From Heteronotia binoei (taxonomy: Eukaryota), in NCBI RefSeq assembly GCF_032191835.1, contig NC_083237.1:10664001-10728000 (forward strand): 64,000 nucleotides of DNA, read 5' to 3'. Position 1 is the first letter of the stretch. Every line of letters starts with the position of its first letter. Position numbers and translations under genes: made by a program. Shown here in pieces: positions 35,236 through 45,200 of this stretch. The notes under the pieces were generated by a model. The model was not told the origin of the DNA. It saw only the letters and a list, made by a program, of their open reading frames with translations, and did not search any database.

Positions 35236-35413
35236 AATCCGGCCCCGCCCCGGCCGCGCTGCAAAGCCGGCTGCATCCGCGGGGCCGTGCTTTGCAGCCT
35301 CGGAGGAGGAAAGGCTGCTTCCCAGGCATCCGGGACCTTGGTGTGGGCGGAGGGCTGAGGCTATAAGTAGCCTCGGCCCCGCCTCTCCCCACGCAGTCCT
35401 GGGAGTTGTTTGG
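35236..35413 (+). repeat. Split direct repeat A1
   Basis: 178 nt, AATCCGGCCCCGCCCC...GTTGTTTGG; about 10 differences from A2, mostly CpG transitions. Confidence 0.92.
35354..35377 (+). promoter_or_regulatory. Putative TATA box of the element inside a palindrome (second copy 41168-41191)
   Basis: GCTGAGGCTA-TAAG-TAGCCTCGGC with TATAA at 35362-35366, downstream of GC-box-like CCGCCC/GGGCGG; identical in A2 (TATAA 41176-41180). Confidence 0.55.
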
Positions 35414-36050
35414 AGCGATCGGGCACGTCTGCTGCCTCGATCATTTGGGACTGCGTCAGCTCAGGCCTTGGGCGGCTCCAAGCTAGGTGTGCTATTGTCG
35501 GCGGTTGGGTTGGCTCTTCCTGGCGCCTGCCACAATGGGCTGAGGCGCGGAGTCATCGTTGGCATTTTGCTCGGATCGCCGGTCGTCGGCCCGATCTAGT
35601 AGCGATCGGGCGGGAGGCTTCCTGCGGCGTGCGGACTCCAGCAGTGCTTGCTGGGTTTGTTGGGAGTGAAGCAGGGCTTTAGGCGCTGCCTTCCACCCCC
35701 CCTTGTTTGTTTGTCGGGTATTTCTTCTTTCCCCCCTCGTGGCGCCCCAGGGCCTGGAGGCCAGCTAAATTGCGTGGTGTGCCTGGGTGGGCCCGTGTGG
35801 AATGCATTTGGTAGGCTGCTTCTAGGAGGAAGGGCAGGTGGAGTTTGGCCTGGGGGGTGAGAGCCTCTTTAGGGTGTTGACAGCATTCGCTGAGGCAAAC
35901 CCCCCCTTCCAGCTTTTTTGACAATTCATAACCCACCCACACACCTCCTCGCTTGGAGGCCTTCAGCGGCACTCCCCCCCCCGCCTTTTTTCACTGCTCA
36001 ACTTCTGTTGGTGGTGATTGTTGGTTTTCTTAGGGGTGGGGATTCGTGGC

Positions 36051-37584
36051 ATGGCCCCCAAGAAAGGACAGGGCCCTTCTAAGGGCAAACAGCCAACTAA
36101 GGCTGCACCCAAAAGAAGGAATCGGACCCCCCAGGGGAGGATTTAGATAGTACTGTTGTGAGACAGGTGATTTTGGATAGAATTGGGGTAATGGAAAGAG
36201 TGCAGGGGGCGTCAGGGTTGCAGGCGGTGTGGCAGGGGCAACACAGTGCCACCGGCTGATCCGGGACATTGCCTTTCGAAAGGGAGTTGCTGTCCAGGCT
36301 TTCTGTTTTGCAGGAAAACATGGCATCAATGGAGGACCGTGGTCAGGATGTCGGTGCGGCCAAGGAAGCAGTGTCGCGGGAAGCAGCCTGCGACCAGGAT
36401 GATGTTGTGGAGCTGCAGAAGGCAGCACAGCCAGTTGCGGTGGCAGTGACGCCTGCATCGGATGAAGGTAGGGCAGCATTCACCTCCCAGCAGGCAAACT
36501 CACCATGGGGGGTTTGGGGCCCAGGGGCAACACAGCTTCCCGGAGATTCAGGTCAGACATCCTCGCCCGTTGAGGGTGGGCAGTGGCCACCCCCGGCTCA
36601 ACCAGGACCATCTTGGACATTGAGTGGGCTACCTCTAGGCCGGCCTCAATGTGTGCAGGCGGGGTGGGGTCAAGTGCCTCTGGCCATTGCGGGGCTGATT
36701 GCCACACATGGGCTCCCTGCAACAGCCGGAGCAACAGGAGTTCTCCCATGGGAAAACCAAATGCCTGTGGCCCAACCATTTGGGTGGCCTGCTGTGAGTT
36801 GTTATCTGTGGGGTTACGCGCATAACCCCTATGGGTCTGTTCCCCTGTTATCCATCCCTTTTGGAGACCCAGCCATGCCTTTGGGAGACCACCTCAGTCC
36901 TGCGACGAGGGAAAAGATTCTGAGAGGGTAATATGTGAATGTATTTAGTCTCCTCTACAGGGAACTGGAAAAGAAAAATAAGGATGAATTAGATGAGAAG
37001 GAAAAGGAAAAGCTTAGGCGACGGAGGGTGGATAGGACCTGGGCTAACTGGCTTCCAGGTTTCCTTATATTCGCGGGGGTCATAGCTAGGGCTCAGCCTA
37101 ATAGGGCTGCCTCCTTGTTTCAATACTGTGACATAATTTATAGGGCCTACACCGATTTTGTGGGTGCGGCCTGGTTACAGTATGATGAGACCTTCCGCAT
37201 GAGGACGGCGATTAACCCTTTGCTTCCATGGGACCAAATCAACCAACAGTTGTGGTTGCAGCTAATGGCCCCTGCTAAGCCTAACCTGGGTGACAGGGTG
37301 GATATGGGCATTTGGTCCACAGGCAAACAGGCATCCCAACAGCCCGCTCCATGGTGGGTCAGCCGGTTCAACCCCGGCTGTTATGTTGGGAATATACCTC
37401 ACAGGGAATATGTTCCAGGAAGTCATGTAAATTCCGACATGAATGCCCATTATGCGGTGGCCCCCATGCATTTTTGGCATGTAGTAAGTCAAAGCCAAAG
37501 AGCGGGCCCAAGCGCCCTGGAGGAGGCGGCAACTCACAGCCTTTGGGTAAAGGGTCCCACCCCCATTCGGCTGAGGGTTCTTGA
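36051..37584 (+). pseudogene. Gag-like ORF1 of the Ngaro element (disrupted)
   Basis: ATG 36051 (MAPKKGQG); frameshift near 36125; stops at 36257 and 36929 (in ILRG*YVNVFSLL); 1-nt deletion near 37304; helical core (WLQYDETFR) and C-terminal Cys/His cluster CWEYTSQGICSRKSCKFRHECPLCGGPHAFLAC at 37384-37482. Confidence 0.8.
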
Positions 37585-39163
37585 GCACTTTCTGGAGAAT
37601 TACCCTAGGGTAGCTGATAAAGTTTATTTGTTTGAGGGATTTTCATTCGGTTTTCGGATCCCATATATGGGGCCAAGGGCCCCATCCATGGCATCTAATT
37701 TACGTTCCACTGTAGGCATGGAGGAGGTTGTTAGGACCAAAATCGCAAAGGAATGCGCTGAGGGGAGAGTGCTAGGTCCTTTTAAGGCTCCACCGGTGCC
37801 TTGTTTCAAGGTTTCCCCTTTAGGTGTTGTACCTAAGAAAACTGTGGGTGAATTTAGGCTTATTCACCACCTGTCATATCCCTCTGGTGGCTTGGTGAAT
37901 GATGGCATTCCCGACCACCTTTGTTCTGTTCGTTATACATCGTTTGACCAGGCGGTCAAGGTTATTCGGGACTGCGGGGTTGGGGCTGAAATGGCGAAGT
38001 GCGACATTAAGTAGGCATTTCGGCTATTGCCGGTCCACCCCAATGACTTTGAGTTGTTGGGTTTCCAGTTTGAGGGTAATTTTTTCGTGGACCGCGCATT
38101 ACCCATGGGATGCTCGGTCTCATCTGCAGCTTTCGAGCGGTTCAGCTCATTTTTGGAGTGGTTACTGAAGGACAGGTCGGGCCGTACCGAGGTCGTTCAT
38201 TACCTGGACGATTTTTTATTCGCGGGCGCGCCTGGCTCTGGGCACTGCGCCTGGCTGCTGGACCTTTTTATTAGATTGACCGACGAGCTCAGGGTTCCTT
38301 TGGCCCATGAGAAGACAGAGGGCCCCGCAACCTGCATTACATTTTTAGTCATCGAGCTAGACACGGTGCAGCAGACCTCCCGGTTGCCTGAGGAGAAGGT
38401 ACAGCAGCTCAGGACAAGGTTGGCCACGTTGAAGGTGAAACGGAAGGTTTCACTCTTAGAGTTACAGCAACTTGTGGGGTATTTAAATTTCGCCTGCTGG
38501 GTAGCTGCTCCAGGCAGGGCATTTCTACAGCGACTTTGTGACGCCATGGCGAATCTTCGCTTACCGCACCACAGAGCACGCATAACGGAGAGTATGCGTA
38601 GTGACTTAGAAGTCTGGGAAAAATTCCTCGAGGTATTTAACGGGGTTTCATTTTGGAGGGAGGATATGAAGGTTGAAGTGGACCTTCAAATTTCCTCGGA
38701 TGCCGCTGGGTCCTCTGGTTTTGGGGTCTTTTTCAGGAGGCAATGGTGCGCGGAGCAATCGCTGCAGGATTGGCACTTCAGCGGCATTTGCAGAAATTTA
38801 ACTTTCCTGGAATTTTTCCCGATAGTTGTGGCAGTTTGCATATGGGGGGACCAGTTGGCCAACCGGGTCGTACATTTTTGGTGCGACAACCTGTCAGTGG
38901 TGCACGTGATCAATTCACTGTCCTCCAAATCCAAACTGGTTATGGTGCTGGTCAGAGTTTTTGTGCTACGTTGCCTCAGTTTAAATATTTTGTTTCTAGC
39001 CAAACATGTGCCAGGTGTTAATAATGGGGTGGCGGACGCCCTGTCTCGCCGGCAGATTGAGAGATTTCAGCAGTTAGCCCCGGAGGCCGATCCTCTCCCG
39101 TTCCGGATGCCGCCCGACCTTTGGCTGCTTGGCAGGTTGAAGCCGGTAGGGCAATCCTGTTAG
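37550..39163 (+). pseudogene. Reverse transcriptase / RNase H ORF of the Ngaro element
   Basis: GFRIPY, SPLGVVPKK, FRLIHHLS, KCDIK*AFR (premature TAG 38012-38014), LPMGC, HYLDDFLF; RNase H SDAAG, LEFFPI, WCDN, ADALSR. Same frame on both sides of the stop. 5' start uncertain. Confidence 0.92.
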
Positions 39164-39988
39164 CTTTGGCCCCAAGTATGAGGAGGGCTTACGATCGCGC
39201 AGCCACACAGTTCAAGGTATTCCGCAACTCCGCGGGGCTGGGTGAGGTTTGGCCCATCCCGGTGGCACATTTAATACAATTTTGCGTGCTGCAGAAATCT
39301 AAGGGTTTGTCAGTTAAGTCCATTCGTTGGCGTTCATTAGTCGGGCACAAGGTTTTCCCGCCTCTGGGGAGGACTTCCGGGTTAAAAAGATGCTCAAAGG
39401 TTGGTCCAGAGAGTGTGCGTTGACGGCGGACCCAAGGCAGCCCATTTCCCCTTCTATCCATCATGGTCTGGGCGGAGTTTGGCCCGCCGTTTGTAGTTTC
39501 GATTATGAGGCCATTCTATTTCACGCAGTGGCACTCACGGCCTTTTTCGGGGCACTGCGGGTCAGCGAGCTGGTTCAGTCGTCGCGTAACGACCCGGGCG
39601 ACAACGCATTGCAGAAAGGCGATGTATCATTTGAGGGGAAACAGGTCTTGCTTCTTGCACTACAATTATGTTGGGCCCTTGCGCTGAGCAAGGGCTATGT
39701 CCGGTTCAAGCCTTATCTGATTATGTCAAGGTCTGGGGGGACACGCAGGGACCGTTTTTCTGGCACGAGGGTGGTTCCCCCCTCACAAAATACCAGTTTT
39801 GGACGGTGACCTCGCGGGCACTGGACAAGTTGGGTTTGGGCCAAATCAAATTTGGGACCCATTCCTTCAGGATTGGGGCCACATCGACGGCAGCGGCCAT
39901 GGGTTATCCGGGACCAGCCATCCAACGCGTTGGACGATGGAGGTCAGCGGCTTATCGGACTTATGTGCGTCCGTTGTTGTTTCCCTAA
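39121..39988 (+). pseudogene. Tyrosine recombinase ORF of the Ngaro element (two frameshifting deletions)
   Basis: Three pieces in the ORF track (39121, 39327, 39668): AFFGALRVSEL (catalytic Arg), THSFRIGA (HxxR), GRWRS..Y..YVR (Trp and catalytic Tyr). The segment carrying the catalytic Lys is missing. Confidence 0.9.
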
Positions 39989-40037
39989 GGGGGCGCTTTC
40001 TTGTTGTTCGGTGTTTAACTATGTTTTCTTGTTTCAG

Positions 40038-40639
40038 GTGCTGTGGCTCGTCATTGGAGGCTGAGGATCCTCGTATGCGGGCACAGCATGATTTTTTGGG
40101 CGGTCCACTTTGCCAGAAGACCATCGGTTGGGTCTCAACTGGGGCTGAGCGAGTGGGCCAAGATCGAATGGTTGGGGCGACGAGGGCTCAGGTGGCCTGG
40201 GCTGTTGCCATTGTTGTTTGGGAGGAGGGCCTGTCCCATGCCTGATATACTGGTCATTCACCTGGGTGGGAATGACCTGGGCCTGTTGAAGGGGAAGGCC
40301 CTCTCCCTGCAAATGATTGTGGACCTGTGGGTCATCGTGAGGAGATGGCCCGGGGTCCGGATCATTTGGTCCCCTATTTTGCCGAAGAGAGTCTGCCGGG
40401 CCGCTTGGAATCTGGCTGGGATTGAGCGGGCCAGAAGGAAGGCAAATAGGGCCCTGCGGTTGGCCCTGGAGGGGGGGCTGGGTACCTTCCTCCCCCACCC
40501 CTGTATTAGGGTGGATAGATTAGAACTTTACCGGCCAGATGGTGTCCATCTGTCCGACGTGGGAAATCGGGCCTTTTTCTCAGACTTGCGGCAAGGTTTT
40601 CGGGAGGCTCTGGGCCTCCCGGGGGTCGTGAATGCCTAA
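40038..40639 (+). CDS. SGNH/GDSL-type hydrolase (esterase) ORF of the Ngaro element; uninterrupted, probably reached by splicing
   Basis: Block I ILVCGHS, block II GRRG, block III VIHLGGNDL, block V PDGVHL; about 200 codons open to TAA 40637-40639; preceded by TTTAAC...TTTTCTTGTTTCAG|G (AG 40036-40037). Confidence 0.82.
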
Positions 40640-40653
40640 GCAGAGGCTTGGCA

Positions 40654-41049
40654 TTTGCGGTGGCAGAAGGAGCAAGGGGTTCAGACCTTGCCGGTGAGCA
40701 CCCAGGCCTAAGCACCTGCGTTGGGCAGGCAATCCGTAGGAAGGCAGATGCGCTTCACGGCTCAATGTCATGAATATGGATCGAGTTTTCATGCCTCCCC
40801 TTAGTCACCCCCTTCTGGTGATCGGGGTTGGGGTTAAGGGGAGGGCATGTGTGGTCTGCTGGCCCAGTTCTAGCCACTTCTGTATGGCTTGGACTGGGGG
40901 TTGGGTGGCTCGCCCTTTCGTGGGACTTGGCGAGGTCAGGCGTTGACCTCAGGGCTCGTCCCACTTTAGTTACCTTGCCATGTTATGTTAATAAAGTGGC
41001 CCGTTTTCCCAAACTTTGTGTATGCCTTTTTATTCTGTACTGAGGGTGT
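40654..41049 (+). repeat. Split direct repeat B1
   Basis: About 396 nt matching B2; AATAAA at 40990-40995; ends CTGAGGGTGT, abutting A2. Confidence 0.9.
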
Positions 41050-41227
41050 AATCCGGCCCCGCCCCGGCCGCGCCGCAAAGCCGGCTGCGGCCGCGGGGCC
41101 GCGCTTTGCAGCCTTGGAGGAGGAAAGGCAGCTTCCCGGGCATCCGGGACCTTGGCGTGGGCAGAGGGCTGAGGCTATAAGTAGCCTCGGCCCCGCCTCT
41201 CCCCACGCAGTCCCGGGAGTTGTTTGG
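41050..41227 (+). repeat. Split direct repeat A2
   Basis: Copy of A1; the B1|A2 junction GGGTGT-AAT-CCGG reproduces the circle junction. Confidence 0.92.
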
Positions 41228-41393
41228 CCCGCCCACCCACCCTGCAGTAGTACAGGTTTTTTACCGGTCGCCTTATTAGGGGCCAGCTAGGAATTTTTTC
41301 GTATCACCTGATTGGCCGTTGGTGGTGTGTTTTTCGCCTACCTTGTACTGCGAATTGTGGTGTGGCTGTTAGGTAGGTAGGCAATTCGGTCAC

Positions 41394-41788
41394 TTTGCGG
41401 AAGAAGCAAGGGGTTAAGACCTTGCCGGTGAGCACCCAAGCGTAAGCACCTGCGTTGGGTAGGCAATCCGTAGGAAGGCAGATGGGCTTCATGGCTCAAT
41501 GTCATGAATATGGATCGGGTTTTCATGCCTCCCCTTAGTCGCCCCCTTCTGGTGATCGGGGTTGGGGTTAAGGGGAGGGCATGTGTGGTCTGCCGGCCCG
41601 GTTCTAGGCATTTCTGTATGGCTTGGACCGGGGGTTGGGTGGCTCGCCCTTTCGTGGGACTTGGCGAGGTCAGGCGTTGACCTCAGGGCTCGTTCCACTT
41701 TAGTTACCTTGCCATATTATGTTATGTTAATAAAGTGGCCCGTTTTCCCATACTTTGTGTATGCCTTTTTATTCCGTACTGAGGGTGC
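41394..41788 (+). repeat. Split direct repeat B2 (3' terminus)
   Basis: Copy of B1; AATAAA at 41729-41734; ends CTGAGGGTGC followed by AAT and host flank. Confidence 0.9.
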
Positions 41789-42286
41789 AATAGTGGCTGT
41801 GAGATAGGAGGGGTTTGTGGTAAAGCGATCATAAGTCTTTCCTGCAAAATCATCTTTTTTCATAATCAAATATAGTGGAGCTACTCAGATTCAGACAAGC
41901 AGTAAAAAATTAATATCGAAAGATCACAACTTGAAAGGCGGACATTTTAATAACCATACCAAACAGCTGTGATTCATTAATGGTTAATGTTTACCAGTAA
42001 ATCTCTGGTAAATCTCCAGTAAATCTCTGAGCAAATGAACGAATAATCTCCTCTTTTTCAAGAGAAATACAGGACGGTTTACAAAATTTGACTACTCATG
42101 CTTATCACAAATACAAATATTTATCAAAGAATAATTGCTCATAATGAGCCATGCACAGAATTTCTGTCTCCATATTCAGTCATGTGAATTAGTCAAACTT
42201 GGTTTGTGTTTCTTTGAGTTCTATTATATAGTTGGGATTGAGCTGTACCCCAAGTTAAACTTCCTGAATTTATTATACTTGGAGGA

Positions 42287-45200
42287 CTAAGTATTTCTCC
42301 TAATTAGCTGTTTCCTGTGATTCAGTTGAGGCCTTAGCAGAATAATGTAACATTTTGGGAAAAAGATAAAGCATAGTAAGCCACTGCTAGAGGCCAAGAT
42401 GGAGAAGATCTCCACAGCTACCATGTATTTTCCTTTGGTGCTCAGGTAGGTTGGAACAAAAGACAACCAAACACTGAAAAATATCAGCATACTGAAGGTG
42501 ATGAACTTGGCCTCATTGAAACTGTCTGGCAAATTCCTAGCAAGGAACGCCACGGTCAAACTGAGAATGGAAAGAAGTCCCATGTAGCTGAGGATCATGT
42601 AGAACATGGTGATAGACCCTGGATTGCATTGTATCACTATCTCTTCAGTCAAGGACTGTGCATCTAAATCTGGGAAAGGGGGGAAAGTTCCCAGCCACAT
42701 CACGCAAATACCTGCTTGAATAAGTGAGGAGGATAGGACAATAGAATTGCTCAGTCTTCTCCCCACCCACTTTCTCACATCGGTCCCTGGTTTGGTGGCC
42801 ATGAAAGCTGCAACCACAGTGATGGTTTTGGCCAACACACAAGAAACAGCCACTGAGAAGATGATGCCAAAAGCAGGTTGCTGGAGCCAGCAAGTTAACT
42901 TCCTTGGTCTTCCAAGGAAAAGCAAAGAGCAGAGGAAACAGAACAGAAGGGCGACCAGAAGTGTGTAGCTGAGATCTCGGTTGTTGGCTTTGACAATGGG
43001 GGTATCTTGGTACTTAATAAAAATTTCTAGAACCAACAGGGTGATTACAGATAAGGTCACAGCAATGGAAGTCAAAGAGATCCCTAAAGGTTCTTCATAA
43101 GATAGGAAGTTTGTCTTTTTGGGAATACATTGATCTTGATCCTTGCTTGGATGCTGATTTTCCTGACATAGAACGCAGTCATCCATATCTGAAAGAATAA
43201 GAAAGAAAGAGGGGTCATCCCAGTGTCCATTCACATGTAACTTAGAACCAGCTTCTCATAATCGTCTTCCAGGGGAGCACTGAGGGAGATCTTTATGCTT
43301 ACTCATCAAGAGTGGTTCCTTATAAGGAGATGGCCATCTGAAGATGCAGATTTATATTCACTCACTGTTCCATGTTATTGTTATTATTGTTTGTTGCTGT
43401 CAGGGGTGGAATCCTAGCAGGAGCTCCTTTGCATAGGGCGTTTTCCCACTTACCTTTTACTGGCGCGACCATCCTCCTCACGCCGGCGGATCTGCAGGGA
43501 TTTCGCACCAGAAGCGCCGGCGCAGCCAAAAGAGCTGGCAACTTCCGTCGCGGAGCCAGCTCAAACGTTTTCCTGCTTCTTGGCGGTTTCCGTTTGAGCT
43601 GGCTCCGCGACGGAAGTTGCCGGCTCTTTTGGCTGCGCCGGCGCTTCTGGTGCGAAATCACTGCAGATCCGCCGGCGTGAGGAGGATGGTCGCGCCAGTA
43701 AAAGGTAAGTGCGAAAATGCCCATATTAAGCCACATACCACAGATGTAGCCAATCCTCCAACAGATTACAACTCTCTTTTTTTTGTAAGCTCATGGAGGA
43801 TTGGCTACCTTAGGGGTGTGTGGCCTAATATGCAAAGGAACTCCTGTAAGATTTCCACCCCCATTTGTTTTTCTTACAAGCAAATGGCCTGCAAAATTCC
43901 ATTTCCCTCCTCCCCTGAAGGTTCCTGGACCTACTATGTGTGACACATCTAGGTGACCAGTGCTTGAAAGAAGGATATGAGGGGGGGCAGTCCTGGTAGG
44001 TGAGGTCTTCAGTGGCAGAACAGAGCTGAAAGCTGTTCCACATTCTGCCAGTGTTAATCTGCCATTGAAGTCACCATCATCCTGGCCCCATTGCACATTC
44101 TTCCCTCCCTGATTGCCTTGATTTAATCCTGCTTCCTCACGCTCCCCATTTCCTTCTCCATTCTACAGACTGCTCAGTTGACTATACACCCATGGTTACT
44201 GCAAGACATCATTCATTCATTCATTCACTCACTCACTCATTCATTCATTCATTCATTCATTCATTCATTCATTCATTCATTCATTGAAGTAGCACCAGTA
44301 GATTGTTAGGCATAGCAAGACACCAAGTGGAGGTTTTTTTCCATGGCCAAATCAAGACTACATTCTGCCACACATTTAGCAAAAGATATAATTTGAGACA
44401 GATAGGGCAGTCTTGAAGTGAATTGCTGAACGGGCAGTAAATAAAAACATTTGGACTCGGAAGACCTCTTTCCACATACTGCTGATCCTGAGCAGAAGTT
44501 TCCATTCCTATAAGCAGGATGGAAGAGATGGTGGCCTTTGGTGTTAGCTATATAAAAGGGTAACCATGCATCTAGCTAAATGGCTGGATCCGAATCAACG
44601 TAGAATGCTTGTGCTCTCTGTTACCTACCCACATGATTTGAAATCTCCCCTGGTGGACAAGGAACACAATCGTAGCAGCAGAATTTCTTCCCTTCCTTCT
44701 TCTTCTTGTGATAGCCAGGCGGGCAGTAATCATTGCACAAGGAAAGGGGCACCCCCTGCTCCACTCAAAAGACAGAAAGTTTGGGTAGAAATAAATAGGT
44801 TCTTGCTCATTAATTGATATGGAAATAAACAACTAGACAGCTGCATTAGAAGAATAGAAGATTTATTGCACCTTGCAAGTCCTTCCCTCAGCTGACCATA
44901 TTTTTGCATGCTTATGTCCGGTTGAACAATAGTGCATGGAAGAAAAGAAACTTACTTCATCCCCCCCTGCTCCAACCTATAGCATAAACTGTATCTGGCT
45001 TTGCCATAAAAAAAGATGTTCTTTTTTTAAAAATGTATCCAAAGTAGGTGACTTGCAAAGAGGGCATCTGATCTCCCCTCCACCATAACTTCTTCCTTTG
45101 AAAGCATCCTCAGCCTTTCTCGTTTTCCTGCCTCCTACTTCCCTTTTCAATCTACCTTTATCTTCCTCCATCATGGTTTGTAGTTTTCCCTCCTTCCCTG

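Follow-up and report, generated by a model that had tools for sequence, protein, structure and literature searches.

Ngaro retrotransposons of a gecko very likely express their esterase and recombinase by alternative splicing from a single gag donor

How a retroelement can express an enzyme whose reading frame has no start codon ahead of the active site is the question raised by a 6.55-kb tyrosine recombinase (YR) retrotransposon in the gecko Heteronotia binoei. The analysed window, a stretch of 64,000 nucleotides, contains at 40019-40639 an SGNH open frame of 206 codons from stop to stop. As a first-pass annotation had reported, the four SGNH blocks GHS (Ser 40085), GRRG, GGND and DGVH are all found in this frame, and its first in-frame ATG follows the catalytic Ser, lying at 40088 directly 3' of the Ser codon. 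That annotation proposed a spliced Gag-esterase mRNA. Our analysis makes it very likely that Ngaro elements related to the window copy express both the esterase and the recombinase by alternative splicing from one donor in gag, because in relatives the gag exon is found fused precisely to either the esterase or the recombinase.

The element, at 35236-41790 on the plus strand with split direct repeats A1, B1, A2 and B2, is a decayed Ngaro retrotransposon (order DIRS). The split direct repeats follow the Ngaro arrangement A1 ... B1-A2-B2, and gag is followed by RT/RNase H and then by the tyrosine recombinase, identified through matches to the ORFs of L084 (Table 1). The gag, pol and YR frames are each disrupted and SGNH is open, in agreement with the earlier description. 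The RVT_1 and Phage_integrase Pfam matches to the element lie below gathering cut-offs, and no Pfam match to methyltransferase, DDE integrase or protease domains appears in eight translated frames at E up to 0.1. The element lies antisense among V2R genes, past the last exon of the nearest one. Elsewhere in the window, at 43403-43861, nested inverted repeats (132 nt at 97%) in a V2R intron resemble a fold-back element.

Table 1. Features of the Ngaro element, in window coordinates.
Feature	Positions	Strand	Remarks
A1 split direct repeat	35236..35413	+	TATA-like GCTATAAG at 35360; 5.6% diverged from A2
gag exon 1, ATG to donor	36051..36467	+	basic N-terminus, two predicted helices, acidic linker; frameshifted
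Phase-1 splice donor AAG/GTAGGG	36465..36473	+	cut between 36467 and 36468
Full gag ORF, unspliced reading	36051..37584	+	broken
pol (RT and RNase H)	37271..39163	+	one in-frame stop
Second acceptor within RNase H coding sequence	39018..39055	+	branch-like TTAAT, CAG/AT, phase 1 into YR
Tyrosine recombinase exon	39056..39988	+	broken: one stop, two frame changes
Candidate phase-1 donor CCG/GTAGGG, dual-coding	39143..39151	+	would close YR mini-exon
Non-coding spacer	39989..40037	+	branch site YTRAC 40015-40019, pyrimidine tract, acceptor CAG 40035-40037
SGNH esterase exon, open	40038..40639	+	catalytic Ser, Gly, Asn, Asp and His present
B1 repeat	40661..41051	+	AATAAA at 40990
A2 repeat	41050..41227	+	split direct repeat
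B2 repeat, 3' end of element	41395..41790	+	AATAAA at 41729; 5.1% diverged from B1

The entry into the SGNH frame has the form that had been described, TTTAAC followed by a pyrimidine tract and TTTCAG/G, with the AG at 40036-40037 and a phase-1 reading. Its conservation, proposed at the time as a check, was assessed through a DNA search for copies of the SGNH region, which gave 3178 candidates, of which 40 were scored (the window copy and 39 others). The CAG at 40035-40037 is invariant in 40/40 copies, all four bases occur at the position preceding it, and the variants of the branch site follow YTRAC. Differences in length among these copies are confined to the spacer upstream of the acceptor, except in two copies with single-base slips in the T run after the Met codon. 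On scores built from approximate donor and acceptor frequencies, the SGNH acceptor ranks first among acceptors of the 4.7-kb body in 26/27 elements alignable from gag to SGNH. Since the 40 copies were picked by likeness over the SGNH region, background conservation there is high (16/109 four-fold sites invariant), and more distant families therefore matter. Of 20 loci from a search that used a distant SGNH as query, 19 have a phase-1 YAG that precedes the Gly of GxS by 41 nt, the twentieth being intron-less, and the acceptor of gecko family B reads TAG/AT, again in phase 1.

The same copies bear on how else the frame could be reached. Catalytic residues of blocks I, II, III and V are kept almost throughout (Ser 39, Gly 38, Asn 40, Asp 40 and His 40 of the 40 copies), and an in-frame ATG upstream of the catalytic Ser is absent in 26/40 window-family copies; the remaining 14/40 have one, at a place not common to them. 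In family B such an ATG occurs in 12/16 copies, which counts against a need for splicing there. The YR-SGNH spacer measures 33-56 nt and falls in all three phases (20/11/9 of the 40 copies), and a fixed readthrough or frameshift from YR into SGNH is therefore ruled out. Open frames of 551 aa, considered as YR-SGNH fusions, were not reproduced in the copies examined.

On the donor side, GAAG/GTAGGG at 36467/36468, one of two candidates named in the first-pass annotation, is present and is the best-conserved donor of the coding body (25/27 copies), with the consensus AAG/GTAGGR; its T is the sole invariant position among 129 four-fold sites in gag. The other candidate, CAG/GTCAGA near 36552, is also present but is conserved in only 10/27 copies and was rejected as the fusion donor. 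Stop-free gag exons are 3n+1 long in 10/11 cases, matching the acceptor phase. In more distant families a phase-1 donor at a like position is the top donor in 13/14 whole gag ORFs, and family B has one in 13/14 copies with an identified ATG. Together with the acceptor, the site shows the hallmarks of GT-AG (U2-type) introns, namely a conserved GT donor, a branch site, a pyrimidine tract and a YAG acceptor. An intron in the 5' leader upstream of the gag ATG was rejected, since inspection by eye of 26 aligned 5' regions gave no shared acceptor. The window copy itself cannot make the Gag-esterase fusion, because its gag exon (417 nt from the ATG at 36051 to the donor, with 5 stops) is frameshifted.

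A second phase-1 acceptor, absent from the first-pass annotation, lies inside RNase H at 39055/39056 (CAG/AT) and opens the YR frame. Its AG is conserved in 38/38 copies, and of the 14 Gln codons in this stretch of pol only the one at the site has an invariant third position. In most copies, stops at 39019-39022 shut the YR frame; in the window's family its first ATG common to many copies is at 39274, within the N-terminal domain. By hand count, the gag-to-YR junction falls 25 residues before a conserved Trp in Hemicordylus, Anolis, Elgaria and the gecko. As caveats on this splice, the acceptor is weak and overlaps RNase H codons, and family B has a YR Met three codons upstream of the conserved Trp. 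The candidate donor closing a YR mini-exon scores well in 21/24 copies, and the Anolis models P0007 and P0008 have a mini-exon similar to this putative one. A candidate phase-1 Pol acceptor was also seen at window 37484-37485, with homologous sites, just after the Gag zinc finger; a phase-1 YAG 59-71 nt before the GPSPI motif is among the three best phase-1 sites in 15/17 elements, and it overlaps gag codons.

These data allow a competing account to be weighed, in which splicing is minor or cryptic, YR is made mainly by a -1 frameshift from Pol, and SGNH is translated from an internal start or its own transcript. A programmed -1 ribosomal frameshift for YR was proposed by Poulter and Butler 2015, as quoted in section 17 of PMC13003380, and the overlap of the YR frame with the end of RNase H and the upstream in-frame ATGs of family B agree with such a scheme. 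We nevertheless regard it as unlikely: the splice signals persist at silent sites and their distance is constant between families, most window-family copies are without an upstream ATG, the YR frame has no widely shared ATG before 39274, and the spacer phase varies.

Alternative splicing from the gag donor is supported physically by seven intron-less copies in the same genome, in which the gag exon is joined exactly at the predicted donor, in three to SGNH and in four to YR. All seven come from related families and none from the window's own subfamily; in those families they show precise removal at these GT-AG sites. Among the SGNH-joined copies, L095 (G000:C5, near 70.43 Mb), one of 97 matches in its search, keeps A1, B1, A2 and B2 and has a single open frame of ~336 codons from the gag ATG through SGNH. 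Its unspliced sister L108, 98.8-99.5% identical, has the donor GTG/GTAAGC and the acceptor TTTCAG/GTGCTG, and the segment missing from L095, as read in L108, starts with GTAAGC and ends with TTTCAG. No second copy like L095 was found among 40 scored. L157, one of 123 matches in its search, and L186/L162 are likewise SGNH-joined and connect CCTG to ATGCTG; the unspliced sisters of L157 and L186 keep GT at the junction base in 21/23 cases, and those retrieved whole read TTTTAG/ATGCTG in 3/4. The YR-joined copies are L202, L208, L209 and L210. For L202, 13/13 sisters at 96-97% identity read GGGCTG/GTAAGT at the junction, and for the other three the donor is in register with relatives at 68-77% identity.

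The searches behind these copies fixed the acceptor side and left the donor side free. Two YR-junction motif searches gave 31 matches, with RNase H upstream in 25, unrelated DNA in 2 and gag exon 1 in 4; they divide into 10 matches (9 RNase H, 1 unrelated) and 21 (4 gag-joined, 16 RNase H, 1 unrelated). For the window's subfamily, the junction-motif search returned 1 match, a mutated acceptor; of two further junction-motif searches, one gave 2 matches, both mutated acceptors, and the other had no match at all. In a separate family-B copy, L149, unrelated sequence adjoins the YR acceptor position, with no gag match.

That the intron-less copies arose by ordinary DNA deletion or faulty assembly, and that the corresponding gene models are predictor artefacts, is highly improbable. 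Internal deletions are common among copies, the L095 junction has 3 nt of microhomology, and the acceptor side was set by the searches; yet with the donor side free, 7/7 gag-joined copies end at the donor, and L157, L186 and L202 share only one base at the junction. L157 and L186 are, moreover, separate events, because their exons 1 are 78% alike and each is nearer to unspliced copies. Splicing being the preferred source of these junctions, spliced RNAs may occasionally be reverse-transcribed and integrated in trans, because they keep the A and B repeats. Consistent with such mobilisation, in DIRS-1 of Dictyostelium, also a YR retrotransposon, the element's proteins act in trans on deleted RNAs (PMC7192593).

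Gene models of other species show the same joints, the RefSeq models cited being automatic predictions. Searching for SGNH relatives of greater length brought up 21 proteins. In 11 of them (Anolis, Elgaria, Hemicordylus) a basic Gag-like peptide stands at or near the start, P0004 having a longer extension; a caecilian and frogs supply further ones. Eublepharis, Pogona and Rhineura were added by a profile search, as was the Heteronotia RefSeq model P0094, which aligns to L158 at 100% and shows the predicted junction. Models combining the Gag leader with SGNH are thus found in Anolis, Elgaria, Hemicordylus (a 24-member cluster), Eublepharis, Pogona and Rhineura. In Hemicordylus, one shared first exon leads to SGNH (P0065), to the C-terminal part of gag (P0064) and to the start of YR (P0063), and in P0054, P0058 and P0068 the Gag leader runs through the whole YR. 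A Logan protein, P0087 (contig of 1677 nt), contains the leader together with a YR-like mini-exon and SGNH in a single frame. With the gag exon of family A as query, no longer protein came up.

The spliced Gag-esterase mRNA originally proposed is accordingly supported from the 36467/36468 donor by conserved signals in several gecko families, three intron-less copies and gene models, and is incomplete as a full account, the same donor also feeding the recombinase. Under this scheme the unspliced RNA would be both genome and source of Gag, one splice would yield a Gag-leader/recombinase fusion, and the other would yield a Gag-leader/SGNH fusion of ~340 residues.

In retroviruses and LTR retrotransposons, as for env and copia gag, the unspliced RNA serves as genome and further ORFs are expressed from spliced RNAs. 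The Ngaro arrangement differs in that the donor lies inside gag and would generate Gag-leader fusions, splicing would also supply the integrating enzyme, and a signal peptide is not evident. The suggestion of an env-like strategy is therefore apt for the splicing pattern but not for the protein, which has a basic Gag peptide and a likeness to the LINE ORF1p esterase. Read for the signal peptide and transmembrane anchor of a retroviral Env, the exon-1 alignment and the Hemicordylus model show a basic N-terminus and no evident signal peptide. The Pfam Lipase_GDSL_2 match to the window SGNH (E 5e-7) is below the gathering cut-off, and a PDB sequence search gave as its sole match the ZfL2-1 LINE ORF1p esterase 4C1B (E 0.0047). 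The structure model of the Hemicordylus fusion P0013, a homologue of the window protein, predicts a pair of helices at the N-terminus, then a disordered linker and an SGNH domain modelled with confidence; its top Foldseek matches are SGNH esterases, including 4C1B. Judged on this modelled homologue, the SGNH alpha/beta fold is confirmed, and the Ngaro SGNH protein looks like the LINE ORF1p esterase rather than Env.

That likeness extends to layout. In ZfL2-1 ORF1p, a coiled coil and an arginine-rich motif accompany an active esterase, which binds liposomes and enhances mobility but is not required for it (PMC3905857). The order in that protein (PDB 4C1B; PMC3905857), a helical N-terminal part followed by a basic peptide, a linker and the SGNH domain, is the same, but ORF1p is one continuous non-LTR ORF, whereas Ngaro would build a similar layout by splicing onto the Gag leader. 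By analogy with ZfL2-1 ORF1p, the shared Gag leader is likely to be an RNA-binding and self-association tag that recruits both enzymes to the particle, and the likely targets of the esterase are intracellular lipids, which it would bind or act on.

The SGNH ORF as a Ngaro feature is already known. Amphibian Ngaro elements (DIRS-53_XT, DIRS-54_XT) have split direct repeats and gag, RT/RH and YR followed by an SGNH ORF whose function is not proven (10.1101/2021.08.05.455354). Their frames are described as overlapping, whereas here SGNH is set off from YR by a spacer and a splice acceptor, and neither 'splic' nor 'intron' is mentioned in the available text of that paper. DIRS-1 differs from the gecko elements in its inverted repeats, internal complementary region and methylase domain, and splicing of its own ORFs does not appear in the accessible sections of PMC7192593. 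No published report of Ngaro splicing of this kind was found, and the available portions of PMC3783388, PMC3266345, PMC6681497 and PMC9341512 hold no relevant passage; Poulter and Butler 2015, Goodwin and Poulter 2004 and Repbase may mention it.

The survival of an open SGNH frame in an otherwise broken element, for which the first-pass annotation offered chance or host co-option, proves ordinary. SGNH breaks as often as RT (1.78 vs 1.82 per kb), an outcome that the annotation had itself named as refuting, and that here tells against a special survival of the frame; the frame is intact in 13/40 copies, and an unbroken 590-nt frame has a chance of ~0.35 at the measured break rate; the open frame of the window copy fits chance survival. 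Pairwise comparison of natural copies puts the dN/dS of SGNH at 0.27, with dS lowered (0.34 vs 0.6-0.9) by the selection of copies for SGNH-region likeness; the values elsewhere are 0.15-0.25 in gag, 0.10-0.11 in RT and RNase H, and 0.16-0.19 in YR. The SGNH dN/dS and a break rate equal to that of RT indicate an esterase under purifying selection in active lineages that decays like the other ORFs after insertion. A young non-autonomous Ngaro family (L108, L159, L160; 99% alike) is without RT, RNase H and most of YR; L108 retains gag and SGNH as open frames, together with both splice sites, a retention that hints at a use for the pair.

Several host-gene models carry related exons. TSG101 'isoform X1' models (P0239, which is XP_060119205.1, and its cluster) from ten squamate genera end in a Ngaro-like SGNH that follows the UEV and Pro-rich parts; these ends are 88-95% identical among themselves, and the catalytic His is replaced by Leu in all 10 aligned. 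On this sequence comparison the exon is likely an old domesticated alternative exon. The DUSP12 model P0003 splices into an old SGNH remnant, L112 (G000:C4:17578800-17588404), at the same 41-nt phase-1 acceptor, and other models with SGNH ends belong to keratin, V2R, ACOT11 and SPRYD4. Among P0116, P0120, P0017 and P0070, long fish proteins end in a related SGNH, two with cold-shock-type domains, and a gecko protein of 3112 residues has six SGNH-related stretches; these proteins are possibly further domestications.

Host co-option of the window copy's own SGNH exon, for example into a V2R transcript, which the first-pass annotation had entertained, is scarcely credible: the frame is open and the DUSP12 and TSG101 models splice into Ngaro-like SGNH exons elsewhere, but the open frame is what chance would often leave and the element runs antisense to the V2R genes, outside the nearest of them and past its last exon.

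Alternative splicing from one gag donor also permits a broader and tentative proposal, which we hold to be possible rather than probable. Tetrapod Ngaro may be 'complex' retroelements in which one Gag leader is joined to three acceptors (Pol, recombinase and esterase); the Gag-esterase might be a membrane-acting particle protein, useful enough for non-autonomous families to keep it while losing RT and YR; and the portable acceptor may have given squamates a conserved TSG101 isoform ending in a dead esterase domain.

What appears to be new is the physical junctions for two Ngaro splices, in families related to that of the window copy, which let the recombinase and esterase proteins be defined with their Gag leaders. 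The finding bears on how DIRS-order elements express ORFs that have no start codon, a review having proposed frameshifting for the Ngaro recombinase. It also accounts for many 'uncharacterized' RefSeq genes of reptiles and amphibians, and it shows a route by which an esterase exon can enter host genes.
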